Source: Vicinamibacteria bacterium (GTDB lineage Bacteria > Acidobacteriota > Vicinamibacteria > Vicinamibacterales > JAENWD01). Taken from it: a DNA stretch of 64,000 bases. Position numbers and translations under genes: made by a program. The notes under the pieces are model-generated. The model made no database searches, was not told the DNA's origin, and saw only the letters and a program-made list of their open reading frames with translations. The stretch spans positions 431,403-495,402 of the forward strand of contig CAVRDA010000021.1 in NCBI GenBank assembly GCA_963719755.1. Reading direction: 5' to 3'. This document shows positions 6,337-61,360 of this stretch, in pieces (positions within the stretch are counted from its first letter, which is position 1; every line of letters starts with the position of its first letter).

Positions 6337-7235
6337 GACCGGCGTACTTCCGCTCGCCGGCGGTGACGGCGATCGGAAGTCTGTTCTGCCGCGGCGGCAG
6401 CGGGCATGTCGTGTGCGGGTTGTAGGCACACGGCGGGTTGTAGGCACGGTTGAAGTCGACGACGACTGCGCCGGACGCATCTGGGGGATCGGTGTAGAGG
6501 AAGCGGATGCGGTAAGTGAGATCGCCTGCCGTCCGATCGCTGAAGATCAGCCACAGCCGCCCGCGCGCCGCTTTCAGCGCTACGAGCCTGACCACCGTGC
6601 CGTTCACGGCAGCCTCGACCTCGCCGGGGCTCTGCATCGTCTCGACGTCGCCGAGGATGTTCTGGATCTCGACGTTGCGCGGTGTGTCGTATGGCACCAG
6701 CCGCCCGGCGATGCGCCACTTCGGGTCGACGGCAAACCAGCGCAGGCCGGTGAATCCGCGGCGGTAGGGGCTCTCGGGATCGCGCAGGCGGACGCCAAGC
6801 CGCCCGCCGCTCGGGTGGAGCTGCAGCGTGATTCGGCCGATCGTCAGCCGATCGGCCGGCGTGTCTGCGGCTGCGTTCGACGGCAGCGAGCGTGACCGGC
6901 CCGCCGACGGCGCGCCCGTTGAGAGAAGTCGCCACACCTGCCGCAGGCTCGAATCGCACGCGGCCGCCCGCGTAGATCATTCGTCCGGCTGCCGCCGGCG
7001 CGGCCTCGTCTGGCAGCACGACGTCCGCCCGGGAATCTGCGCCGACGGTGTTCACGCCGTCGTGCAGGAAGTAGAGCCCGGCAACCGACAGCCAGCCGTC
7101 CTCCTTCTTGAGGTCTGCCTCGCGCGTCTCTCGCCAGCGCTCGACCTCGGCAGCCCAATCCGCGGGCGGTGAATCAGGCAGCGCCGACGTCAGGGCGGAC
7201 AGGAGCAGAGAGAGCAGTGCAAACGTAGGCAACAT
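6311..7235 (-). CDS. DUF1684 domain protein; frame broken near 6895
   Basis: The signal peptide MLPTFALLSLLLSA and the WLSVAGLYFL part (from ATG 7235) are in a different frame from ORF 6311..6937 (RWFAVDPKWRIAGRL, NRAYNPPCAYNPHTTCPLPP). Confidence 0.75.
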
Positions 7236-7557
7236 GGCTGCGACACCTGGCGCGTCCCGGTGCGGTCGCCAATGGCGATCGACGCGCGGAACACGCGATC
7301 AAAGCTCGGTGATGGGGAGGCGCCTCCGGCGGGCGAGCCTTCAGGCCGCCGCGGGAGACTAGCTACAGGTGCAGCGACAACACGCGCAGGACGACAGCAG
7401 CCGTCCTGGGACCAGGCGGGGAGCGGGCAGCAAGGGGCGCGCGCTCGAGGTCATTGAGGCGAGTGTAACACGAGGAAATCCTGCCCGTCACGCTGCGCTT
7501 CGCCTGCCGGAAAGATCCGCAACCCGACGTGCGGCGGCTCTGCAACAGCGACCGGGA

Positions 7558-7580
7558 ATCCGCAGCGTTCATCTGCGGAT
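7558..7580. repeat. hairpin ATCCGCAG-cgttcat-CTGCGGAT (CGCAGAT dialect)
   Basis: Perfect 8-bp stem read directly. The block aatccgcagcgttcatctgcggatcg resembles the right end of the 42723-42929 element. Confidence 0.6.
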
Positions 7581-7604
7581 CGCTGCTGCCGCCGCGGTGA
7601 TGAG

Positions 7605-7612
7605 TCTAGAAT
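7605..7612 (+). promoter_or_regulatory. TCTAGAAT; its -10-like TAGAAT lies 6 nt upstream of ATG 7619
   Basis: The sequence reads gagTCTAGAATttgcggATGact. The same octamer occurs at 14852-14859 (minus strand) and 45752-45759. Confidence 0.4.
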
Positions 7613-7618
7613 TTGCGG

Positions 7619-8508
7619 ATGACTCGGATGTCAGCTGCAGTCGTACTGATAGCGGTGCTCACCGCTGTGAATGTGAGAGCCGATGAGCTCGCAGAACGTG
7701 TCGCAGCGCTGACGAAGCCCTTCAAGGGAACGGTCGCGCTCTACGCGATGAATCTCGACACCGGCCGCGACTTCTCGCTCGATGCGGACGCCAAGGTACG
7801 GACGGCCAGCACGATCAAGCTGCCGATCCTCTGCGCGCTCGAGTCTGCGGTGGCGTCGGGCCGGTTGCGCTGGGACGAACCGGCCGTGGTGCGGAAGGCG
7901 GGGCAGGTATCGGGGTCTGGCGTGCTGGCCGATCTCAGCGACGGCACGACGCTGCCGCTGCGCGACGTCGCCGTCCTGATGATCGTCGTCTCGGACAACA
8001 CGGCGACGAATCTCGTCCTCGATCGCGTGAGCGCCGATGCCGTGAATGACTACCTCGACACGCTCGGCCTGACGCGCGACGAGGGCATTGAGAAAGGTCC
8101 GTGGCGATGGCGCGCCGGCCTAGCGGATGGAGTCGCGCCGGGCGGCTGCCAGAGAACGAGAGATACGGGCTCGGCGTCTCGACGCCGCGCGAGATGGTGC
8201 GCCTCCTGCAGCTTCTCCACCAGGGCAAGGTGGTGAATCAAGACGTCTCGAAGGACGTCCTCGACATCATGAGGCGGCAACAGATCAAGGACGGCATCGG
8301 GCGCCACAACGCCGACGCCGTCGCGAGCAAGAGCGGCGCGCTGGACGCGCTGCGCAGCGACGTCGGCATCGTGGACAGCCCCGGCGGGCGCATCGCCATC
8401 GCCGTGACGGTGGACGGCATGCCGGAGGTCGACTACTCACCCGACAATGCAGGCGATCGCCTGATTTGGGAGCTCTCGAAGGTCCTCGTCGCCGGACTCG
8501 CGCGGTGA
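7619..8508 (+). CDS. class A beta-lactamase-family serine hydrolase; one or two frame breaks at 8070-8125
   Basis: Signal peptide, then SxxK (ASTIK), SDN and KSG motifs. ORFs 7613..8236 and 8101..8508 overlap out of frame. Confidence 0.75.
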
Positions 8509-8512
8509 GCGC

Positions 8513-10543
8513 CTAGCGGAACGAACGTGGCAGCAGCGGCTCCTGCGCAAGCCGGGCGCGCACTTCTTCCGACCACCCCAGCACGACGTCGAGCGCTGTG
8601 GCCGGCCGGTCACGGCGGACGACGAGCACGCGGCCGTCGGGCGCGGTGCCCAGGATCCGCGCGACGCCGTCGGCGACGGGCCGTGCCGGGGCGGCGCCAC
8701 CAGACATCCGATCGACCGCGCTGGCCATCAGCGCGTCGTCATTGAGGAACCACAGGGTCGCGCCGTCGCGCGACCAGGTCGCGGTCGAACCGGCAGCGAC
8801 TATCTGAACCGCGTTGGGGTCGGACAGCCGGCGCACCGGCGCGAGCGCGATCTGCGAGACGCCCGCGCTGGTGGACGTCCACGCAAGCAGGGCGCCATCC
8901 GGCGAGATGGCCGGGTCGGTCTCGTCGGCGGCGGTCGAGACGCGCGCGACCGGCTCCGCAGTCCCAGGTCGCGAGACGACGATGTCGAGGCCGAGCTCCG
9001 GCTGATGCACCACGAGCCGCGACGCGAGGCCGGCCGTCACACGAGGCGGCAGCGCCTGCAGCTTCATCTGCGTCCCGCGCGCGAGGTTGATTCGCCAATA
9101 CTCGAGCGCGCCGGCGGCGGATGTCGACGCGAGCAGGTTCTCGCCGTCGGCCTCGAGAGCAATCGGCGTGCGCTTGTCCGGCGCGGGACCGTCGGCCCGG
9201 CGGCCATCCGGCGTGATCCAGCTGAGGGAGATGCCGTCTGAAGGCGCTGGAACGCTGACGGCGGCGCCGCGCGACGACAACGCGAAGAGCGGCGCGCCGT
9301 CCAGCGAGCGCCGCACCGTGAGCGGCAGCGGCACGTCGCGTTCGGGGATCAGCGTCCGCGGGTCGAAGGGCAGCGCCAGCGGCCGGTCGCCGCGCCAGGC
9401 AATCAGCTCGCCCGTCGGAAGCAGCCACGGAAAGGTCGCGTGCTCGGCGACAGTCGACGTGCGCAGCGTGCTCTGAGACCTGGCCTGCACGCGTACGCCG
9501 CGATCTCCGTCAGCGCGGTCGCTTGCGTACAGCACCAGCCCGGTCGCGTCGACGCGCGGCCAGGCATGCCGTGCGTCCCCGCTGGCGGAATCGAGGGTGG
9601 TCACCGCCCTGACAGGTCCGCCGGCCGCCGGGACGCGGCTGAGCCCTTCGCCCCACCGCGCGGCGAAGACGATCCCGTCGTCTGCCCAGACGCCGCCGCC
9701 CGGCGCCGGTGCATCGGCCAGCGGCACCGGCTCGCCGCCGGCGACTGCGATACGGAGCAGCCGTCCGCCCGCGAAGTAACCGAGCGTTCGCGCATCCGGG
9801 GAGAAGAAGGGCGCCTCGGCTCCCTCGGTGCCGGCAAGTTCGCGCGACGCCGCGTCCGCAAGGCTTCGGACGAACAGCTTCGGCGACTCACGAGGTCGCG
9901 CGGCAACGAACGCGACGGATGAGGAGTCGGGCGCAAACGCCAGCGCCGGCGCGCGGTCGGCGACCTGGTAGCCGTCCGGCAGCGCGAGGGTGAAGCGTGC
10001 GACGGTCTCGCGCGGCGCCGCGGGTTGCTGGCGCAGGCTCCACAGAATCGACGTCCCGAGGATCCCTCCGACGACCGCGAGCACCCACGGCAGCCACGGC
10101 GTCCAGAGCGGCCGGGCGTCCTCAACTGGCGGCTCCAGAACAGGCGGAACGGCCAGGACCTCCGGGCCTTCGATGGACGCCGCGAACCGATAGCCCCGCC
10201 TCGGGATCGTCTGGATGTAGTCGCCGCGCTGCGGATCGTCTCCAAGCGCCTGCCGGAGCAGGCTGACGGCCTCGGCGAGCGACGTGTCCGTGACGTGAGT
10301 GTCCTTCCACACCTCGTCGAGCAGCGCCTGCTTCGACACCACCTGCCCCGGCCGTGCCACCAGCACCGCGAGCACGCCGGTCGCGCGCGGCGGCAGCGCC
10401 AGCCGCACGCCGTTCCGGTAGAGGAATCCGTTGGCGCGGTCGAAGCGAAATGGCCCGAAAACGGCGTCTTGAGGAGAGCTTGACGAAACCTTCAGGCCGC
10501 CTTCAGGACTTCGGGATGCGCCTTCCGCCATGCTGCCCGCCAC
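8513..10543 (-). CDS. CadC-like winged-helix (OmpR/PhoB-type) regulator with a TM segment and a TolB-like beta-propeller sensor domain
   Basis: Intact 676-aa ORF: FGPFRFD...IQTIPRRGYRF DNA-binding domain, one TM helix, then repeated FSPDG/SPDG propeller motifs. The start may be ATG 10531. Confidence 0.8.
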   Translation of the reverse strand: MAGSMAEGASRSPEGGLKVSSSSPQDAVFGPFRFDRANGFLYRNGVRLALPPRATGVLAVLVARPGQVVSKQALLDEVWKDTHVTDTSLAEAVSLLRQALGDDPQRGDYIQTIPRRGYRFAASIEGPEVLAVPPVLEPPVEDARPLWTPWLPWVLAVVGGILGTSILWSLRQQPAAPRETVARFTLALPDGYQVADRAPALAFAPDSSSVAFVAARPRESPKLFVRSLADAASRELAGTEGAEAPFFSPDARTLGYFAGGRLLRIAVAGGEPVPLADAPAPGGGVWADDGIVFAARWGEGLSRVPAAGGPVRAVTTLDSASGDARHAWPRVDATGLVLYASDRADGDRGVRVQARSQSTLRTSTVAEHATFPWLLPTGELIAWRGDRPLALPFDPRTLIPERDVPLPLTVRRSLDGAPLFALSSRGAAVSVPAPSDGISLSWITPDGRRADGPAPDKRTPIALEADGENLLASTSAAGALEYWRINLARGTQMKLQALPPRVTAGLASRLVVHQPELGLDIVVSRPGTAEPVARVSTAADETDPAISPDGALLAWTSTSAGVSQIALAPVRRLSDPNAVQIVAAGSTATWSRDGATLWFLNDDALMASAVDRMSGGAAPARPVADGVARILGTAPDGRVLVVRRDRPATALDVVLGWSEEVRARLAQEPLLPRSFR

Positions 10544-16506: not shown

Positions 16507-19153
16507 ATGACTGACCGTGCAACGCCCGCCGATGACACGTTGTGGAGCCTCGATGAGATCACCCGGCTGGTCTCCGAGAGCGGCAACGCGGCTGAAACCC
16601 TCTCCAACGTCGTTCGGCTGATCCAGCAGCGGTTCGGCACCGACGTCTGCTCGGTCTACCTGCTCGAGCCCGACCGATCGACGCTCGTCCTCGCGGCGAC
16701 CATCGGCCTCAGGCCCGAGAGCGTCGGCAAGGTGCGGATGCGGCTGACGGAGGGCCTCGTCGGCCTCGTCGGCGAGAAGATGCAGCCGCAGGTCATCGAG
16801 CACGCGACGACGCATCCGCGCTTCAAGTACTTCCGTGAGGCCGGCGAGGACGCGTACCAGTCGTTCCTCGGCGTGCCGCTCGAGGATCGCGGACTGCTGC
16901 AGGGCGTGCTGGTCGTCCAGACGCTCGAGCCGCGGGCCTTCGGGGCCGACGCCGTGCAGCGGCTCGAAGCGGCCGGCGCGCAGCTGGCTCCGATCGTCAG
17001 CGAGGCGCGGACACTGGGCCTGTTCGTCGCGCCGGCGCACCAGCGCCTGTCGGAGCTGGCGCAGAACCTGTGGTGGAGCTGGGACAAGGACGCGACGAAC
17101 CTGTTCCGCGACCTGGATCCGGTGCTGTGGCGCCAGCTGGCCCACAACCCGGTCGCGCTGCTCCAGCGCATCGACATCGACGACCTGCAGGAGCGCGCAT
17201 CGCAGCTCGCGCTGCACAGCCGGATCAACTACGCCTACCGCCGGATGCAGGAGTACCTGTCGTCGAAGCGGACGTGGGGCGTCCAGCATGCCGGCGTGCT
17301 GTGGGCGCGGCCGGTGGCGTATTTCTCCGCCGAGTTCGGCCTGCACGAGTCGATTCCGATTTACTCCGGCGGCCTGGGGATTCTCGCCGGCGACCACATC
17401 AAGGGCGCCTCCGATCTCGGCGTGCCGCTCGTCGGCGTCGGCCTCTACTACCAGCAGGCGGTACTTCCGGCAGGTGCTGGACAGCGAGTGCTACCAGCAG
17501 GAGGAGTACATCGACGTCGACCGCCGGCTCCTGCCGATGCAGCCGGCCACCGACGCGGCCGGCGAGCCCGTGATCGTGACCATCGACACGCGGTCCGCGT
17601 CCATTGCCGCACGCGTGTGGAAGCTCGCGGTGGGCCGCAACACGCTGCTGCTGCTCGATTCCGACGTCGACGGGAACCGGCCGGAGGATCGCCAGCTCAC
17701 CGCGCGGCTGTATGGCGGCGACGACTGGGTCCGCATCCGCCAGGAGCTGCTGCTGGGCGTCGGCGGCGTGCGCGCGCTCAAGGCACTGGGCATCTCGCCT
17801 GGCGTCGCGCACCTCAACGAGGGGCATAGCGCCTTTGCGGCGCTCGAACTGGTTCGTGATCGGATGACGCTGGAAGGCATCGGGGTGGAGGAGGCGATTC
17901 GCCGCGTCGCCCCGCAGGTCGTCTTCACGACGCACACACCGGTGCCGGCCGGGCACGACCGCTTCACGCCGGAGCTGATCGAGGAGCACCTCGGCCCGCT
18001 GCGCGACCAGCTGGGCATGGCGCCGGACCAGCTGCTGTCACTCGGCCGGGAGAATTCGGGCAATCACAGCGAGACGTTCTGCATGACCGTGCTCGCCCTG
18101 AAGCTTTCGCGCAAGGCGAACGCGGTCTCCTCGCTGCACGGGCAGGTCTCGCGCGCGATGTGGAGCGGGCTCTACGGCGGCGACGACGCGCGCGTGCCGA
18201 TCGGCCACATCACCAACGGCGTGCACGTGCAGACGTGGCTCGCGCCGCAGATGCACGACGTCTACGATCGCCACCTCAAGACGGACTGGCCCGATCGCTG
18301 CGCCGAGCCCGCGTGCTGGGACGACATCGAGCACATCGACGACGGCGAGCTGTGGGAAGTGCACCAGGCGCTGAAGGCCCGGCTGATCGACTTCGTGCGC
18401 CGGCGCACGGCGAACGCGGCGGAACGGCGCGGCGAGTCGGCCGAGAACATCGCGCAGCTGAAGCGCGCGCTGAGCCTGGACGCGCTGACCATCGGCTTCG
18501 CCCGCCGCTTCGCGACCTACAAGCGCGCCAACCTGATCCTGCGCGATCTGGAGGCCGTCGCCGGGCTGGTCAACGACCCGCAGACGCCGATCCAGTTCGT
18601 CTTCGCCGGCAAGGCGCACCCGCGCGATCGCCCGGGCAAGGAGATGCTCCAGCAGATCGCGCGGCTCAACCGCGATCCGCGCTTTGCCGGCAAGGTTCTC
18701 TTCGTCGAGGACTACGACATCAACGTCGGCCGTCACCTGGTGCAGGGCGTGGACGTGTGGCTCAACAACCCGCGACGGCCGCTCGAGGCCTCCGGCACGA
18801 GCGGCCAGAAGGTCGTCCTCAACGGCGGCCTGAACCTCTCGGTGCTCGACGGCTGGTGGGCCGAGGCCTACGACGGGCTCAACGGCTTCGGCATCGGCGC
18901 CGGCGAGACCCACTCGGACCTCGAGGTCCACGATCGCCGCGACGGCGAGGCGCTGCTCCGTGTGCTCCGCGACGAGGTCGTGCCGATCTACTACGACCGC
19001 GACCAGGACGGCCTGCCGCGCGCCTGGATCGCGCGCATGAAGCGCGCGATTCGGACGCTTGGCTGGCGCTTCAGCGCCGGCCGCATGGTCGCCGACTACG
19101 CGCTCGGCTCGTACATCCCTGCCGCCGGGGGAACGAGCAGGGATAACAGATAG
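16507..19153 (+). CDS. glgP: alpha-glucan phosphorylase (GT35) with an N-terminal GAF-like domain; frame broken near 17459
   Basis: A GAF-like segment ([22 protein letters not shown]...GLVGLVGE) is followed by [31 protein letters not shown] and EASGTSGQK. ORFs 16411..17829 and 16835..19153 join here. ATG 16507 is preferred over GTG 16411, which lies inside the repeat. Confidence 0.85.
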
Positions 19154-19162
19154 CGCCACGGA

Positions 19163-19284
19163 GTGTCCATGCTGGGTGCTGGGTGCTGGGTGCTGCGTGC
19201 GGTGCTGAGTGCCGAGTGCCGAGTGCTGAGTGAGTGCTGAGTTTGCGTGCCCTGGCACGTAGCACGCAGCACGCAGCACTCACT
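19163..19284. repeat. heptamer-ladder palindrome, GTGCTGA dialect (about 12 units left arm, 4 units right arm)
   Basis: ATGCTGG GTGCTGG GTGCTGG GTGCTGC GTGCG GTGCTGA GTGCCGA GTGCCGA GTGCTGA GTGA GTGCTGA GTTTGC GTGCC ctg GGCAC GTAGCAC GCAGCAC GCAGCAC TCAC. It lies between the glgP stop (19153) and the TetR stop (19280). Confidence 0.85.
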
Positions 19285-19868
19285 TGAGATGCGGTTTCAA
19301 CACCGCGTCCAGATCTGAGAGCATCCACTTCGCGGCGCTGCCCTCCCGGTAGATCGCCCACGTCATCATCGAGCCGCTGACCGCGACCTCGATGAGGCGC
19401 GCCAGCTGGCCTGGCCGCACGCCGCGCGCCAGCTCTCCTTCTTCCACCGCAGCCTTGACGAGCGCCGCCAGCTGGCGGCGCGTCGCCTTCGCATGCGTCA
19501 GCAGCGCCTGATACAGCGCGGGATCGGTCAGGTCGAGCTGCAGGTAGGCCAGGTTGCGCGCGAGGGCCTCGGGCGATTCGGCCAGCCGCGCGTGGCAGCG
19601 CACGTACTCGCGCAAGGCCGAGAGCGGCGAGGGATGCGCGCGCCGCAGCGCGGCGAACATCTCGTCGGCCGAGCCGGCAAACCGCGACGACATCGCCCGC
19701 AGCAGCTGCTGCTTCGACCCGAAGCGCTGCACCAAGCGCGCCGGCCGTGAGGCCCGCCTCCTGGGCAATCGCCGCCAGCGTCAGCTCCGCCGGACCCACC
19801 CGCGACATCACCCGCGTCGCTGCGCCAAACACCTCGTCGTCTGAAGCCTTGCGGGGTCGTGGACTCAT
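19280..19868 (-). CDS. TetR/AcrR family transcriptional regulator; frame broken near 19745
   Basis: The HTH segment VGPAELTLAAIAQEAGLTAGAL (from ATG 19868) joins ORF 19280..19768 (VQRFGSKQQLL...). Confidence 0.8.
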
Positions 19869-32051: not shown

Positions 32052-32092
32052 AGCGATCTGCGAATGCGCAGAGGACGCAGATTCTCTTGCGG
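32052..32092. repeat. CGCAGAT-dialect hairpin between convergent genes
   Basis: ATCTGCG (32056-32062) pairs with CGCAGAT (32076-32082). GCGCAGA lies in the loop. Confidence 0.55.
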
Positions 32093-32116
32093 TGAGTTGC
32101 CCGCCGCTGACGCGAA

Positions 32117-35631: not shown

Positions 35632-36228
35632 ATGACGACCACCGCTGATTTCTTCATCAACCGGGTACTGGACGCGATGCCTTCGTCGACGCCGCGGCGT
35701 CAGCAGATTGCGCTGGAGCTGCGCGGCCACATCGAGGAGCGCCTGGCCGCCGGCCTGCCGCTCGACGAGGTCCTGCACCAGTTGGGCGATCCGCGGTCGC
35801 TGGCCGAGTCGTACCTGTCGGCCGTCCCGCTGGTGGCCGGGTCTTTCTGGGCGCGCGCCGTGGCGCGCGTCGTCGACTACGCCGTATCGGTCGCCGTAGT
35901 GGCGCCGTTCGGGGTCGCAGTCTGGCTGACGAGCGACTCGAAGCTCTTTCCCCTCTGGCTCTTCGCGTACATCTTCACCGCCAGCCTGATGATCGCCGCG
36001 TATCCAATCGTCGCCGAATATCGGTACGGCAAGACCTGGGGCAAGCACCTGATGGGCCTGCGCGTCGTCCGCGAATCGGGCGCGAGGATCAGCCTCGGGC
36101 AGTCGATCGTCCGGCAGCTGCCGGTGTTCCTGCAGGTGATCTGGATCGACGCGCTGTTCGCGCTCTTCACCGACAAGAGCCAGCGCGCGTTCGAGCTGCT
36201 GTCGAAAACGCGGGTGGTGAGGGTGTAG
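35632..36228 (+). CDS. PadR-associated membrane protein with a C-terminal RDD domain
   Basis: Intact 198-aa ORF. N-terminal cytoplasmic helix region (IALELRGHIEERLAAG), then RDD-type TM segments (YRYGKTWGKHLMGLRVV). Confidence 0.65.
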   Translation: MTTTADFFINRVLDAMPSSTPRRQQIALELRGHIEERLAAGLPLDEVLHQLGDPRSLAESYLSAVPLVAGSFWARAVARVVDYAVSVAVVAPFGVAVWLTSDSKLFPLWLFAYIFTASLMIAAYPIVAEYRYGKTWGKHLMGLRVVRESGARISLGQSIVRQLPVFLQVIWIDALFALFTDKSQRAFELLSKTRVVRV

Positions 36229-36342
36229 GGTTGTGGGGTTGTAGGGTTGTAGGGTTGTAGGGTTGTAGGTTGTAGGGTTGTAAGGTCGTCAGGGCGCGAA
36301 ATCCACGCCCCTACAACCCCACAACCCAACAACCCACGACCC
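36222..36342. repeat. heptamer/octamer-ladder palindrome, GGGTTGTA dialect, G-quadruplex-capable on both strands
   Basis: GGGTTGT GGGGTTGTA (GGGTTGTA)x3 GGTTGTA GGGTTGTA AGG...GGGCG cgaaatcca CGCCC CTACAACCCC ACAACCC AACAACCC ACGACCC. It lies between TAG 36226-36228 and the minus-gene stop at 36343. Confidence 0.85.
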
Positions 36343-38872
36343 TTATTCGTACCGCAGCGCCATGATCGGGTTGATCTGGCTGGCGCGGCGCGCCGGGATC
36401 AAGCCGGCCGCGGTCGAGACCAGCGTCAGGAGCACGACCGTCGCGATGGCGATGCCCGGATCGTGGGCCTCGATGCCGTAGAGCTGAGACGCGACGTAGC
36501 GGCCAAGTCCCAGGGCAGCCGGGATACCGACTGCGAGGCCGATGACCAGCAGCAGCAGCACCTCCCGCATCACCATCCAGGTCAACTGCGACGGCTGCGC
36601 GCCGAGCGCGAGGCGGATCCCAAGCTCCTTCCGGCGCCGCGCGACGACGAACGCCATCACGCCATAGAGGCCAATCGACGCCAGCAGCGTCGCCAGCAGG
36701 CCGAAGCCGGCCGACAGCAGCGCCACCAGCCGATCGCTCAGCAGCGTCTCGTCCAACTGCCCCTGCAGCGTCTTCAGGCTGTAGACGGGCATTGCCGGAT
36801 CGAGCCGGCGCACCTCGTTGCGAATGAGGCTGTAGGCGCCTGCCGACGACGTCGCAGTGCGCATGTAGATGGCGCTGCTGCCGCGGCCCCAGGCGGGAAT
36901 GAACACCTGGCGGCGGACGCCTTCGCGCGGCCCCTCGTAGAGCGAGTCGGCCACCATCCCGATGATCTCGATGTTCATCTTCGTGTCGGGCCCGTCGCCC
37001 CAGCCAAGCCGCTTGCCGATGGGGCTGGCGCCCTTGAAGAAGTGCCGCGCGAATTTCTGGTTCACGATCGCCACGCGCGATGCAGGTCAGGTTTCGTGTC
37101 GTCGAACTGGTCCCGTCCTTCCGAATCGCGGAAGTCGCGCCCCTCGAGGATGGGGATCTGCATCGTCTTGAAGTAGCCCGGCGACAGGGCGTTCATGAAC
37201 GCCTGCATGTCCTCGCCGTCGCCGGCCTTGTGACCCTCGACCGACATCGTGCTGTCCCATTCGTCGCCGCTCAGGATCGAGACAGAGGCCTGGCCCGCCG
37301 ACTTCACGCCCGGCGCCGACCGGAGGTTCTGGAGCAGGTCGCGATAGAACAGCGCGCCGCGCTCGTCGGTGTAGCCGTTCAGCGCCGGCGAGAGCTGGAA
37401 GGTCACGAGGTTGTCGAGGTCGACGCCCGGATCCGTGGTCCGCAGGTTCTGCAGGCTTCGGACGAACAGGCCGGCGCCGAAGAGCAGGAGGAAGCTGAGC
37501 GCGACTTGCGCGGTGACCAGCCCCTTGCGAAGGAACAGCGACCCGCCGGCTCCCGCGATGGAACCGACCGTGTCCTTCAGCGTCGTCCAGGGGTCGGGCC
37601 GGCTCGCGCGCAACGCCGGCAACAGGCCGAAGACGACGCCGGTCGCCAGGGTGAGAGCGAACGTGAAGCCCGAGGATCCGCAGGTCCGGCTCGGCCTGGA
37701 TCTGCAGCGGGTTGCTCTCTGACGGGATGAGCGCCAGCAGGCCGCGCGTGAGCGCGACGGCGACGAACACGCCGAGCACTCCGCCAATGGCCGAGAGCAG
37801 CAGGCTTTCGACCAGCAGCTGCCGCACCAGGCGGCCCCTGGTCGCGCCGAGCGACAGCCGGACCGCGATCTCGCGCTGGCGCATGAACCCTCGGGCGATG
37901 AGCAGGTTGGCGACGTTGGCGCAGGCGATGAGCAGCACCAGGCCGACCATGCACATCAGGACGACGAGCGCGGTGGAGAAGTCGTTGCGCAGGCTGGAAT
38001 AGCCGATGTCCGCCTTCTCGACGTGCAGCGTCCCCTTCAGGAACTGCTCCTTCGAGTAGGCAGACCAATCCTTGGCCGCCGGCAGCGTCGCTTCGTACTT
38101 CCGGATTTGCGTGAACAGGCCCTGCATCGGCGGCTGAGCGCTTTCCACGGTCTGACCCGGCTTCAGCCGCGCGAACACCTGCACCCAGCGCGAGCGCCGA
38201 TCGTCGGCCCGCATCCAGGTCCATTCGGGCAGCACCACCGGCTTCATCAGGATCGGCACGCGGATCTGCGGCGACCGCGCCGGGTCGAGGCCGTCGAATC
38301 CGGCCGCCGAGACCCCGACGATGGTCATCGGGTAGTTGTTGATCTGCACTTTCTTGCCGATGACGCCGGGGTCGCGGGCGAAGCGCGACACCCAGTAGTC
38401 GTACGAGAGGACAGCGACGGGGTGGCCGTTGTAGACCTGGTCGTCTTCCTTCGAGCTGAGCACGCGCCCGATGGCGGGCCTGACGCCCAGCATCGAGAAG
38501 TAGTTGCCCGACACCATCTCGGCATCGAGCCGCTCGGTCTGGTTGTCGACCGCAAACGACACCGAGACCAGCCGGCGGGCGATGACCTGCGAGAGCGGCG
38601 CCGCCTTCTGCTGGTAGTCCTGGTAGATGGGATACGAGTGCATCCGCGATCCCATGTTGCTGCCGTTGTGGTTGCCGCGCTGGATGAGCATCACCAGCTC
38701 TTCCGGGGCGCGCACGGGCAGCTTCCTCAGCAGGATCTGGTCGATCAGCGTGAAGATCGCCGTATTGGCGCCGATGCCGAGTCCCAGCGACAGCGTCGCG
38801 ACGATGGCAAAGAGCGGGCTGCGATCGCAGGCCGCGGAGCGCGAAGCGGAGGTCGGCCAGAAGGGAAGTCAT
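36343..38872 (-). CDS. ADOP-family duplicated MacB/FtsX-type permease (no adjacent padR); three frame breaks (near 38815, 37690, 37080)
   Basis: MTSLLADLRFALRGLRSQP..GIGANTAIF N-terminus and two FtsX-type modules (ACANVANLLIARG...; ...GIRLALGAQ...). ORFs 37577, 37087, 37062 and 36343 join here. Confidence 0.8.
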
Positions 38873-40351: not shown

Positions 40352-40354
40352 AAC

Positions 40355-40519
40355 GTGCTGCGTGCTTTGTGCACCGTGCCACGTGCGGTGCTGCGTGCTT
40401 CGTGCTTCGTGCACGTGCGTTCTCCGTGCAGTGCCCGTGCGGTGCTGCGGGCACGAAGCACCGCACGCGGCACGTGGCACCAGCACCGCACGCGCACGCA
40501 GCACCGCACGCAGCACGTG
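40355..40519. repeat. heptamer-ladder palindrome, GTGCTGC dialect (about 95-nt left arm, about 70-nt right arm) with nested perfect stems
   Basis: cgtgcggtgct (40436-40446) pairs with agcaccgcacg (40457-40467). cgtgcggtgctgcg (40382-40395) pairs with cgcagcaccgcacg (40497-40510). It lies between the fabF stop and the convergent stop at 40529. Confidence 0.9.
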
Positions 40520-41114: not shown

Positions 41115-42605
<1,491 letters not shown>

Positions 42606-42722
42606 CTGGTCTCTCCTCGCGATTGATCGTTTGAAGAGTCTACAGGTTCGAGCCCGTACGCGCCGCCACACCTTCAGGGCGGATATCGGTTCGCTGTCAC
42701 GCTGCGCTTCGCGTGTCCTCAA

Positions 42723-42929
42723 GGGATCCGCAGATGACGCCGATTGCGCAGATTTCTTGCTGGAGATTGCTCGATCAGGTACCTCGCGGCGGCTCGGAAA
42801 CAGCGAACCCGGGCGACACCGGCCGCGAATGCGGCCGGTCGGCGAGACGGGCCGAGGCGTGCGCCGCGGGGTCGCCCGGGTTCTGGCGCCCAGGGAATCT
42901 GCGTTCATCCGCGTAATCTGCGGATCGAT
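42723..42929. repeat. about 207-bp nested inverted-repeat element (MITE-like or structured RNA), CGCAGAT dialect at both ends
   Basis: Ends: GATCCGCAGAT (42725-42735) pairs with ATCTGCGGATC (42916-42926), and CGCAGATT (42747) with AATCTGCG (42896). Inner perfect 13-bp IR GAACCCGGGCGAC (42805-42817) / GTCGCCCGGGTTC (42871-42883). Core hairpin CCGGCCGC-gaat-GCGGCCGG (42819-42838). Confidence 0.75.
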
Positions 42930-42972
42930 TCGCCGCCGCACACCGACGCAGTGCCGGAACTGAAGTTCCGGC

Positions 42973-45424
42973 CTACTCCGACCGCAGCGCCTGAATCACG
43001 TCGACCCGCGAGGCGCGCGCCGCCGGCATCAGCGACGCGACGACCGCGGCGGACACGAGCACGAGCGCCGCGCCGATGACCGGCATCATCCCGGGCAGCC
43101 GGACGTCGGTGATGTAGGCGCCGACGAGCCGCGCCAGCAAGACACCGCCCAGGACGCCAGCGACGATGCCGATGCCGGCGATGACCACGCCTTCGCCGAG
43201 GACTCGCGTCAGCAGATGGCGCGGCTCCGACCCGATCGCCAGGCGCACGCCGAACTCGCGGGTGCGCGCGCTCACCGAGAACGCCAGGACGCCGGCGACG
43301 CCGACCACGGCGATGAGCAGCGCGACGCCGGCGAAGACGCCGAACACCAGCGCGTTGAGGCGGTCGGGCGCGAGCACCTCGGCGCGCACGTCCTCGAGCG
43401 TCGCCGCCTGTTCCACGGGCTGATCGGCCGACAGGTCGCGGATGACGCGCGTGATCGGCCGCACGAGCGAGTACGGGTCGGTCCGGGTGTGCACGAACAG
43501 CCGGCCGCCGCCGATTTCCTGCTCGAATGGGTGATAGACGCTCATCGCCGGTCCAGGCACGACGTTCTCGTCGTCCACGTCGGCGACGACGCCGATGATG
43601 CGCCGCGGCCCCGTGCTGACGTCGATGAACTTCATCACCGGGTCGGTCCACATGAAGTTGCGGTTCAGCGCGTCCTGGGTGGCGAACATCCGCTGCGCCA
43701 GGCTCTGGCTGACGATGACGACCTTCTCGGCGTCGCGGCGATCCGCGTCGGTGAAGTCGCGGCCCGCGATGATCGGCACGCCGAGCGAGGCGAAGAACCC
43801 TGGCGACACCGTGCGGAAGCGCGCGCGGGGATCCTCTTCGCCGCCCGCCTTGGCGTAGCCCTCGGCGGAAAACTGGAATCCCGGTCCGAACGTGCCCGCG
43901 TCGCGCCACGGCACGACGGTGCCGACGGCCACCCGCTCCACGCCCGGCAGCTCGCCGATCCGCCGCAGGATCTCGCGATAGAAAGCGGCGGTCTGCTCCG
44001 GCGGTCGCGAGTACGACACGATCGGCACGTTGATCGCGAGGACGTTCTGCGTGTCGAAGCCGGTTGGCGCCGACTGCAGCGCCAGCAGCGTCGTCAGCAG
44101 CATCCCCGCGCCGGCGAGCAGGACGAACGACGCCGCGATCTGCGTGACCGCGAAGACGCGCAGCCGCCGGTTGGTGCCCGAGGTGAGCCGCACGCTGCCG
44201 TTCGACAGGCTGATGCCGCTCGACGCGTCGGCGTTCGGCAGCCGCGGCACGAACGCCAGCAGCACCGACGCCGTCAAAGCCAGGGCGACGCCGACCCACA
44301 GCAGCGTCGAATCCACCGTGAGGTCGAGCGCTCGCACCGAGAATCGCGAGGCGTACTGCGCCAGGATCGCGACCATCGGCCGCGCGATGAGCACGCCGAG
44401 GACGGCCCCGGCGCCGCAGAGCAGGAGGCTTTCCGCCAGCAGCGTCCGGCGCAGCGCGCCGGTGCTCGCGCCCAGCGCCGCACGCACGGCCAGCTCGCCC
44501 TCGCGCCGGACCGAGCGCGCCAGGATCAGGTTCGCGACGTTCGAGCAGGCGATGACGAACACCAGCGCCGACGCCGCCAGCAGCACGAGCAGCACGGTTC
44601 GCGCTGGCGAGATGATCTGGTCGCGGAGCCGGGTCACGTCGATAGCGAAGTTGGCGTCCTTCGGGTACGACTCGCGGTGCTGCGGCGACGATCGAGGAGT
44701 GGATCGTCCGCAGCTCGGCGCGCGCGGCCTCGATGTCCGCGCCGGGAGCCAGCCGGCCGAAGAGCTCCGTCATCCGGTGCACGCGCCCGTGCACCATCGT
44801 CGCGTCCAGGTGGTGCGGGCTGGTGACGACGTTGGAGATGATCTCGGTCTGCGACGGATATGGCACCGACGGCTCGAGGACGCCGACGATCGTCGCGGAC
44901 CGATCGCCGAGGCGGATGTTCCTGCCGATCAGGCTCGCGTCGCTGGCCAGGGTCGTGGACCAGAAGCGATGCGTCAGGACCACGGCGCCGGCGGCCTGCG
45001 CGCCGTCGTCTCTGGGGCCGAGCAGGCGGCCGAGCACCGGCTTGAGGCCCATCACGTCGAAGTACGAGCCGCCGACGACGCCGGCCCTGACGACGCGCGG
45101 CTCGCCCAGGCCCACCATCGTGAAGTCGATGGTCGAGAAGTCGCCGAAGGCCGCAAGCGTCCGGGCGCGCGAGCGCAGGTCGTTGAGCTCGGGCACCGAG
45201 AACGCGGCGTTGTCGGCGCCGATGCCGCGCGCGCTCTGGCGGATGTAGACCAGGCGGTCCTCGTCCTCGTTGACCAGCGGCCGCAGCAGCACGCCGCGGA
45301 CGACGCTGAAGATGGCCGCGTTGGCGCCGATGCCGAGCGCGAGCGTCACGATGACCGTGATGGCCAGACCCTTGACGCGGGCCAGGGACCGGAGGGCGAA
45401 GCGGAAGTCGGTCAGTATCGTCAT
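42973..45424 (-). CDS. ADOP-family duplicated MacB/FtsX-type permease (no adjacent padR); frame broken near 44680
   Basis: [40 protein letters not shown]-terminus from ATG 45424, then ORF 42973..44637. The span is 2452 nt. Confidence 0.85.
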
Positions 45425-45476: not shown

Positions 45477-45670
45477 GTGCCGCGTGCTTCGTGCCATGTG
45501 CCTCGTCCGTGCTTCGTGCCTCGTGCCGCGTCCGGTGCTTCGTGCCTGGTCCCTTCGTGCAGAGCCGCCGCCCCGGGGACCGCAGCCGGCACGCGGCCCG
45601 CACCCAGCACCCGGCCCATGACACCGCACGCGGCACCGCACCCAGCACGCGGCACCAAGCACTCAGCACC
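45477..45670. repeat. heptamer-ladder palindrome, GTGCTTC dialect (about 85-nt arms) in a divergent intergenic region
   Basis: GTGCCGC GTGCTTC GTGCCAT GTGCCTC GTCC GTGCTTC GTGCCTC GTGCCGC ... then GCAC GCGGCCC GCAC CCAGCAC ... GCGGCAC CGCAC CCAGCAC GCGGCAC CAAGCAC TCAGCAC. Confidence 0.85.
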
Positions 45671-54757: not shown

Positions 54758-54879
54758 TGTAGGGATTGTAGGGTTGTAGGTTGTGAGGTTGTAGGGTGGC
54801 CGTTGTAGGGTTGTGCCGTAGGTAGGGAGATACCCCAGTCCTCCCTACAACCCCACGACCCTCACAACCCCACAACCCT
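54758..54879. repeat. heptamer/octamer-ladder palindrome, GGGTTGTA dialect
   Basis: TGTAGGGAT TGTAGGGT TGTAGGT TGTGAGGT TGTAGGG..TTGTAGGGT... with core GTAGGGAG (54822-54829) pairing CTCCCTAC (54841-54848), then ACAACCCCACGACCCTCACAACCCCACAACCC. Confidence 0.85.
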
Positions 54880-54884
54880 CTTCC

Positions 54885-60405: not shown

Positions 60406-60502
60406 CGTCCTGACTCCTCAATGATCTGACGCGGCTCTTCCGCGTTCACAGGTCAGTCGGAGCCGATCGCCGCTTCTCGACATCGGCGCGCGCGGGGCGC
60501 GC

Positions 60503-60569
60503 GATTACGCCGATTGAAACTGGATTACGCGGAGGATCTATCCGCAGATTTCGCAGATTTCCCAGATTT
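60503..60569. repeat. CGCAGAT-dialect tandem units (GATTACGC x2; CGCAGATTT x3) overlapping the 3-prime end of the TetR gene
   Basis: The sequence reads GATTACGCcgattgaaactgGATTACGCggaggatctatcCGCAGATTTCGCAGATTTCCCAGATTTt. On the minus strand the 9-mers encode ...KSGKSAKSA.... Confidence 0.7.
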
Positions 60570-61360
60570 TCTTGGTTCGACGACGGCTTCGACGCCGTCG
60601 AGGATCCGCTCGAGGCCGAAGTCGAAGTCGGGGTCGGCCTGCGTGAGTCCTGCCGTGCCGGCGGCCGTTCGAACAATCCGGACGCCAGCAGCTTCGCCGT
60701 CTCGGGATAGCGTCCGGCGTCGACCAGCGCGGCCATCGTCCTGCCGTAGTGCCGCTCGGCCGCCTCGCTGGCGCGGCGCGAGCGCTCGCGCCCTCCGCCC
60801 AAATCCAGTGCCAGCAGCGTCGAGTGTCTGACGTAGCCGCTGAGCAGCGTGAGCACGCCGATCTTCTCCGGCCAGCGGAGCTTCGTCTGCGCCAGCGCCC
60901 TCAGGCCGGACTCCATCCACGCGATCTGTCGGGGGCCGGCCGGGGGGCCCGAGACGGCGAGCCGCGCGATCCACGGACGCTGCCGCAGCAGGTCGCGCTG
61001 AGCGACGGCCCACGTGCGGAGCAACGGGCGCCAGGGACCGGTCGCGCCCGGGGGCGGCTCGCCGGCCGCGTGGTCCTGCATCAGGACGAGCAGCTCGTCC
61101 TTTGACCCGACGTGCCGGTAAAGCGCCATGGTGCTGTAGCCGAGTTCCCGGGCGACTCGCGGCAGGCTGACGGCGTCGAGGCCCTCGCTGTCGGCCAGAT
61201 CGACGGCCTGCTCGACGACTTTCCGGACGTCCAGCTCTGCCGGACGGCCGAGCGGGGATGGCGCGCCGAGTCCCCACAGCCGGCGCAGGACCGGCGGCAC
61301 CCGGGTCAAAGGCTCCTTGGATGGACGGCGGGCGGCCATGACCGACGCATCATCGCCCAC
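60525..61360 (-). CDS. TetR family transcriptional regulator; frame broken at about 60650-60680; start GTG 61360 or ATG 61339
   Basis: The HTH LDAVSLPRVARELGYSTMALYRHVGSKDELL is in ORF 60446..61360. The C-terminus DPDFDFGLERILDGVEAVV is in ORF 60525..61277. Confidence 0.8.

Follow-up and report, generated by a model that had tools for sequence, protein, structure and literature searches.

An intergenic palindrome in a Vicinamibacteria chromosome, probably a decayed copy of a MITE/REP-like repeat family also carried by tailed phages

The 207-bp palindrome that separates two minus-strand genes in this Vicinamibacteria contig (element A) is probably a non-autonomous palindromic repeat of the MITE/REP-like kind, in a copy that is composite and has decayed. 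Both of its arms are significant members of a repeat family, a shorter paralogue (copy B) lies elsewhere in the window, i.e. the whole 64,000-nt stretch of DNA that was analysed, and an additional palindrome is nested within it. Members of the family are present in many copies, have strict arm polarity, are located at gene junctions, are present or absent in related phages, and are common to tailed-phage contigs and Vicinamibacteria-type chromosomes. The family is apparently undescribed and of a known kind, the selfish intergenic palindrome. The positions of element A, its parts, its relatives and its neighbouring genes are summarized in Table 1.

Table 1. Element A, its relatives in the window and its flanking genes (window positions).
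Feature	Position	Strand	Remarks
Left extension of the unit, beyond the palindrome	42696..42722	+	contains GTCACGCTGCGCTTCGC
Left arm of A, GGGATCCGCAGATGACGCCGATTGCGCAGATTTCTTG	42723..42759	+	viral-arm profile match 42723-42756, E 5.2e-6
Internal backbone of A	42760..42804	+	42783-42806 agrees with B 7528-7551 at 20/24 positions
Nested second palindrome, 79 nt	42805..42883	.	arms GAACCCGGGCGAC(ACCG) / (CGGG)GTCGCCCGGGTTC; missing in B
Central 8-bp hairpin CCGGCCGC-GAAT-GCGGCCGG	42819..42838	.	off-centre within the nested palindrome
Right arm of A	42891..42929	-	reverse complement GATCCGCAGATTACGCGGATGAACGCAGATTCCCTG; viral-arm profile match 42930-42895, E 5.6e-7
Right extension common to A and B (…TTCGCCGCCGC)	42930..42939	+	gapped alignment with B
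Upstream neighbour, ADOP-type FtsX/MacB permease	42973..45424	-	protein 82% identical to L140 orthologue
Downstream neighbour, secreted polysaccharide-deacetylase-like protein, 492 aa	41115..42593	-	homologue comparison
Copy B, shorter decayed collinear relative	7487..7595	+	without inner left-arm units and without nested palindrome
Copy C, solo arm (GATTACGCC…ATCCGCAGATTTCGCAGATTTCCCAGATTTTCTTGG)	60497..60575	+	viral-arm profile match 60535-60569, E 6.6e-9
Probable relic, GATCTGCGAATGCGCAGAGGACGCAGATTCTCTTG	32056..32095	+	weak profile match, E 0.17; gap between convergent genes

Structure and gene context of element A

An earlier sequence-only reading had described three concentric inverted-repeat layers at 42723-42929, and all of them are present there. 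The outer arms, given as about 33 nt with about 26 matches, align at 25 of 29 positions in a gapped arm-to-arm alignment, which is close to that estimate; a repeat finder resolves them into two pairs, 42725-42744 / 42907-42926 (20 nt, 90%) and 42747-42759 / 42891-42903 (13 nt, 85%). The middle layer is a perfect 13-mer pair (42805-42817 / 42871-42883), stretched to 17 nt at 94% by the repeat finder, and the central 8-bp hairpin with its GAAT loop is likewise found. The limits 42723-42929 hold for the palindrome, whereas the unit shared with B reaches about 27 nt further left and 10 nt further right, so that the element measures 207 bp as a palindrome and 244 bp as a shared unit. In the left extension, GTCACGCTGCGCTTCGC is identical at 17/17 positions in A and B and sits 10-12 nt outside the left GATCCGCA in both, at equal distance from it. 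The left arm is built of three 9-10-nt CGCAGAT-type units with the ATCC end outward. No target-site duplication is present at A, as had been reported, and none is present at B.

No relative of the nested palindrome turned up in about 2 Mb of fetched DNA, and since this palindrome has no counterpart in B it reads as a later insertion or a local expansion; the middle layer looks like a second element nested in an older backbone. The window has a G+C content of 68.6%, and a repeat scan gives many short inverted repeats around A. Comparison with shuffled controls, which the earlier reading had named as a check, nevertheless sets the fold of 42715-42935 apart, because it beats 200/200 shuffles on both strands. 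The predicted RNA fold reaches -112 kcal/mol (z -4.22) for the minus strand and -121.1 kcal/mol (z -4.01) for the plus strand, each against 200 shuffles; the plus strand, which is untranscribed, thus folds better than the transcribed minus strand. Element A has no coding capacity, and the sole long ORF that crosses it is the deacetylase frame prolonged upstream into a non-conserved stretch.

The gene context had also been read correctly, with A lying between the ADOP stop codon (TAG at 42973-42975) and the deacetylase-like gene, both on the minus strand, and the 366-nt gap is 366-379 nt depending on the choice of deacetylase start. ATG 42593 is the most likely start of the deacetylase-like gene, and a signal peptide follows it. 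All 25 of the 25 homologues found begin at residues 1-22 of the 492-aa version, and the 608-aa ORF that runs through A to 42995 is therefore an artefact of G+C-rich sequence; this open frame shows no conservation in the deacetylase homologues. The best deacetylase relative in a search of genome contigs is 74% identical and comes from Vicinamibacteria MAGs. Locus L140 holds the only orthologue of both flanking genes, with three additional genes between them and no element A. Its positions 6965-10040, compared with 42519-42972 of the window, encode a DUF1428-like protein, one unassigned protein and one resembling a sugar-phosphate isomerase. Because these three genes are missing from the window, the junction that holds A has been rearranged. 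The filled/empty comparison for A thus meets three other genes in L140, and there is no clean empty site among the deacetylase relatives.

Two side observations concern the same neighbourhood. A separate 8-bp hairpin, GCCGGAACTGAAGTTCCGGC (GCCGGAAC-TGAA-GTTCCGGC, 42953-42972), directly follows the ADOP stop, has no U-tract and is outside the CGCAGAT repeat family. Compared with their homologues, several genes are broken into more than one frame, namely the ADOP gene next to A (frameshift at about 44645-44679), a beta-lactamase-like gene (7613-8508), a TetR gene (60446-61360) and a second ADOP gene (36346-38811). These are either long-read assembly indel errors or real pseudogenes, and they affect ORF-based readings across the whole window.

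A repeat family shared by Vicinamibacteria and tailed phages

The recurrences that the sequence-only reading placed at about 7557-7582 and 60523-60551 are real and larger than it stated. The relation of B to A was found by short-word BLAST and gapped local alignment: B (7487-7595) is collinear with 42696-42939 with a score of 80.9, compared with 33 +/- 6 (maximum 65.8) for shuffles. The two copies agree in an internal block (GCGGCGGCTC.G.AACAGCGA), in the right end (ATCTGCGGATCG) and in a tail (…CGCCGCCGC). Copy B lies about 30 nt upstream of the beta-lactamase-like gene, and A and B have opposite orientations relative to their neighbouring downstream genes. Searching metagenomes with the flank common to A and B (CACGCTGCGCTTCGC..ATCCGCA) gave 74 loci, all of them coding sequences with TLRFA…IR motifs. 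Copy C overlaps the 3' end of the TetR gene. The conserved C-terminal frame of TetR (…DFDFGLERILDGVEAVVEPR) would enter arm C and end in …KSGKSAKSADRSSA*, with the stop codon within the repeat.

Each arm of the family consists of ATCCGCAGAT followed by two further 9-10-nt CGCAGAT-type units. The outer end reads (T)(K)ATCCGCAGAT, later units read CGCAGAT(T)N, and the centre between the arms is variable; the units of both element ends are of the 'CGCAGATT' type, three per end. A motif scan of IMG/VR contigs for ATCCGCAGAT N(1-20) CGCAGATT returned at least 120 stretches, and the consensus among the matches listed is (T-rich)ATCCGCAGATT.CGCAGATT.CGCAGA(T). An HMM profile was built exclusively from the arms in these phage contigs and then run on the window, where it matches copy C most strongly, then the right arm of A and then its left arm (E-values in Table 1). 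The same profile matches two arms in L121, a Vicinamibacteria MAG locus, and no further significant arms in about 430 kb of related Vicinamibacteria loci. The L121 arms are solo arms in direct orientation (18877-18913 and 19532-19567) that flank a small minus-strand gene, which may encode a SpoU-type methyltransferase-like protein, a guess from its sequence. Both have an additional outer GATTACGCSGATGAAT segment, and the same segment is present in copy C.

Within its 64 kb the window holds A, B, C and one probable relic. In 100 sequences, almost all of them viral loci, 204 arms were collected, and a single 36-kb phage contig has up to 14 arm matches among the matches listed. The family is far denser in tailed-phage contigs than in Vicinamibacteria-like chromosomes. 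Their domains (capsid, portal, terminase, baseplate) mark the carrier contigs as genuine tailed phages; one carrier encodes a tyrosine integrase, and element density is high in phage late operons. A typical element has no BLAST match among GenBank phages or PLSDB plasmids, and a literature search for the motif strings returned nothing but primers.

Among the 204 arms in 100 sequences, those lying at most 450 nt apart form 50 inward-facing pairs (61-254 nt), 1 outward pair and 6 direct pairs, and this excess of inward over outward pairs indicates discrete elements with defined ends. The phage elements are flanked as TTT|ATCC…GGAT|AAA, and in 34 elements no target-site duplication of 2-8 bp occurs above shuffled expectation. 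Crude GC3-based gene calls place 37 of 46 placeable elements between co-directional genes, with median distances of about 8-9 nt from the upstream stop and about 20-30 nt to the next start, and some members are found at convergent and divergent junctions. Solo arms abut a gene boundary with their outer end. Copies in one contig are homologous over their full length, including the interior between the arms.

Presence and absence can be seen at phage junctions. A 228-nt element in L076 separates two genes that abut directly in the related L099 (TGAccATG), where the site is empty, and ten relatives of a gene in L016 have gaps of 0-21 nt, all without an element. At one junction with 93-97% identical flanks, L048 carries a CGCAGAT element and L076 an unrelated CGTC-tagged palindrome; the two occupy L048 1778-1976 and L076 2226-2365, so that one palindrome replaces the other at a single phage gene junction. 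GTAG-/CGTC-tagged REP-like palindromes are also nested in CGCAGAT elements, and further such loci are L059 8888-9123, L091 292-360 and L031/L107.

A mobilising enzyme was sought in several ways. Arm pairs 450-4500 nt apart in the fetched loci, i.e. candidate autonomous parents, enclose phage structural genes. A tblastn search for a Y1 transposase with an approximate IS200 TnpA query gave no significant match in 1.45 Mb of loci, and no transposase was among the Pfam families shown for 156 ORFs from loci with many arms.

Weighing the alternative explanations

The sequence-only reading had offered a structured intercistronic RNA as one identity of A, in which case the long hairpin would be under selection to guide processing by RNase III/E, to stabilise a 3' end or to terminate transcription. 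ERIC, REP and Correia elements can affect mRNA processing, stability or termination via hairpins. The fold of A is very stable and better than every shuffle, and A lies between co-directional genes, like most phage members, which stand just after stop codons. The inner spacers of the two arms are identical in 9/33 elements compared with 2.3 expected (p 0.001), and pairing or arm homogenisation therefore has some part; this also fits elements that start as near-perfect palindromes and later decay. However, the signs expected of a conserved RNA fail to appear. At gathering score, Rfam matches neither the window nor 12 element-rich loci, and at E <= 1 it gives no match in 42550-43000. G·U pairs are in no excess on the transcribed strand (sense 36, antisense 31, other mismatches 116). 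Arm identity is 0.860 within elements and 0.848 between elements (p = 0.08), so the complementarity is not specific to the element, and the better fold belongs to the untranscribed strand. There is no terminator-like site in 42300-43300 and no promoter-like site in the region. A and B are oppositely oriented to their downstream genes, and members at convergent and divergent junctions add to the case against an RNA. An RNA identity is therefore unsupported and is considered unlikely. Among specific candidates, Acido-1 (RF01686) and Acido-Lenti-1 (RF01687) are ruled out by the lack of an Rfam match (PMC2864571). An intrinsic terminator was rejected as well, since the family flanks, with a T-run 5' and an A-run 3', are the reverse of that arrangement.

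From these comparisons we conclude that the arms appear to be conserved as sequence and not as base pairs, and as such they are most likely recognition-site arrays for a protein that binds DNA or mobilises the element. In L055 CGCAGAT has become CACAGAT in all units of the two arms, and this joint switch points to recognition of the unit sequence. Such arrays could also be functional protein-binding sites (operators, 'stoperators', centromere or nucleoid-protein sites), which would make the chromosomal copy regulatory and not selfish. The conserved CGCAGAT core with its 9-10-bp periodicity, the coordinated change in L055, the high density in late operons and the failure to find a transposase in the fetched loci all agree with this possibility. 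It is nonetheless improbable, because the sites are wholly missing from related phages, a different palindrome family substitutes at one junction, and homology extends over whole elements, variable interior included. In addition, the window copies are decayed (B and the relic at 32056) with no consistent gene partner or orientation, and no candidate binding protein was identified. A recombination site, either integron attC-like or phage attP-like with arm-type integrase sites around a core, is very improbable. Arm-type layouts are inverted sets of about 10-bp direct repeats around a core, which the inverted sets of three such repeats around a variable core do resemble, and one carrier phage has a tyrosine integrase. 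Against this, up to 14 arm matches in one phage contig are unfit for a single attP, the element ends are without the conserved GTT/AAC core of attC (GTTRRRY), no integrase is found in the ten window ORFs scanned beside the three copies, and elements lie between ordinary structural genes. A palindrome without any family, arisen by chance or purely locally in GC-rich intergenic DNA, finds support in the high G+C content, the many short inverted repeats near A and the inner palindrome without relatives. With a fold z of about -4, independent profile matches to both arms and the collinear paralogue B, this reading is effectively refuted for the outer arms and scarcely credible overall. A DnaA box (TTATCCGCA compared with TTATCCACA), attP arm sites, integron attC, Chi or uptake sequences and intrinsic terminators were dropped because they misfit copy number, flanks or polarity.

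The decayed MITE/REP-like repeat is the reading that we favour. At the family level there are many copies and empty phage junctions, so that the family is not a single-copy one without empty sites. The label 'MITE-like' stands in its broad sense of inward-facing inverted repeats that are non-coding, multi-copy and present or absent at given sites, but two defining features are missing, a target-site duplication and, in the fetched loci, a transposase or parent element. The sparseness of the family in related Vicinamibacteria, with L121 alone in the roughly 430 kb searched, also speaks against a MITE-like reading. Under the favoured reading the arms would be putative recognition arrays for a DNA-binding or mobilising protein, the element would spread without leaving a target-site duplication, and copies would survive solely where they are harmless, in the space from a stop codon to the next ribosome-binding site. 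Once transcribed together with the ADOP and deacetylase genes, A would fold as a long hairpin, which could alter mRNA processing or stability as a side effect and not as a selected function. The RNA hairpin of A is in this model probably a by-product, and any effect of it would be incidental.

Known repeat systems and significance of the family

Bacterial MITEs and vMITEs resemble the family in being short, non-coding, multi-copy and intergenic, with terminal inverted repeats, occurrence in phage and host, and presence/absence polymorphism. At 207 bp, or 244 bp as the shared unit, A is within the size limit for MITEs (<~800 bp). In contrast to MITEs, the family lacks a target-site duplication, the searches gave no cognate IS or transposase, and its arms are three tandem 9-10-nt units and not a simple inverted repeat. 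ERIC/IRU and Correia elements measure about 100-200 nt, lie in intergenic regions that are transcribed and form imperfect palindromes, whose hairpins account for any effect on mRNA; those of the Correia type also have a TA duplication and an IHF site. The size difference between A and B arises by internal insertion/deletion, as in the ERIC/IRU and Correia size variants. However, the family is unrelated in sequence to ERIC and Correia elements and is also phage-borne, and to our knowledge neither ERIC/IRU nor Correia elements have tandem-unit arms. Stoperators and start-associated sequences of mycobacteriophages are single asymmetric sites, belonging to one repressor and one phage cluster. Like the family, both are short conserved sequences repeated in many phage intergenic gaps, whereas the family consists of inverted arrays, occurs in diverse phages and chromosomes and is missing in close relatives. 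REP/BIME elements are likewise extragenic, often in inverted pairs and without target-site duplication. A REP/BIME unit is a 20-40-nt imperfect palindrome with a GTAG/CGTC tag, whereas the family arm is neither palindromic nor tagged and is made of tandem direct units ending in ATCC.

GTAG-/CGTC-tagged palindromes have been linked to RAYT/TIRYT transposases, and Acidobacteria have TIR-flanked Y1 transposases with TIR repeat families (Di Nocera et al., PMC3733652). In phages of Acidobacteriae UBA7540 from IMG/VR, 99 'vMITEs' have been reported in a large survey without a description of them (PMC11602168).

Other repeats are present in the window. Inverted arrays of short tandem repeats also form the arms of five further intergenic hairpins (36212-36342, 54758-54880, 40354-40517, 45477-45670 and 19170-19279), with the 8-nt unit GGGTTGTA at two sites and GTGCNNN-type heptamers at three. 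Their MFE ranges from -70 to -125 kcal/mol, and 3/5 exactly fill gaps between convergent genes. None of the five has an Rfam match. Such hairpins are all but missing from related Vicinamibacteria loci, where the sole example is a heptamer array in L140, upstream of the ADOP orthologue. In viral contigs, three copies of GGGTTGTA gave no matches, and the matches listed for the generic (GTGCNNN)x4 were non-specific. At 1152-1249 a 9-nt unit (CCAACCTGA, about 8 copies) and a 10-nt unit (AACCCGACGT, about 4 copies) are repeated directly in tandem, and neither array has a hairpin partner. The CGCAGAT elements may be related to the window's other inverted tandem-repeat hairpins. A bolder proposal, which we regard as speculative and unlikely, is that the unit arms (CGCAGATT) would be recognition arrays of a new mobilisation or DNA-binding system that leaves no target-site duplication, is common to Acidobacteriota and temperate tailed phages, and sets palindromes exactly into the space that separates a stop codon from the next ribosome-binding site. 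The window's other inverted arrays of 7-9-nt tandem repeats would then be products of the same or a related process.

For annotation, A explains the false 608-aa ORF and arm C explains the odd C-terminal tail of the TetR protein, and A coincides with a junction unlike that of the closest available orthologue (L140). Element A does not point to a new regulatory RNA. Arms built of tandem units are an unusual feature of the family. What emerges is a well-defined sequence family that links Vicinamibacteria-type chromosomes and uncultivated tailed phages, and through this link the family may serve as a host-linkage marker.
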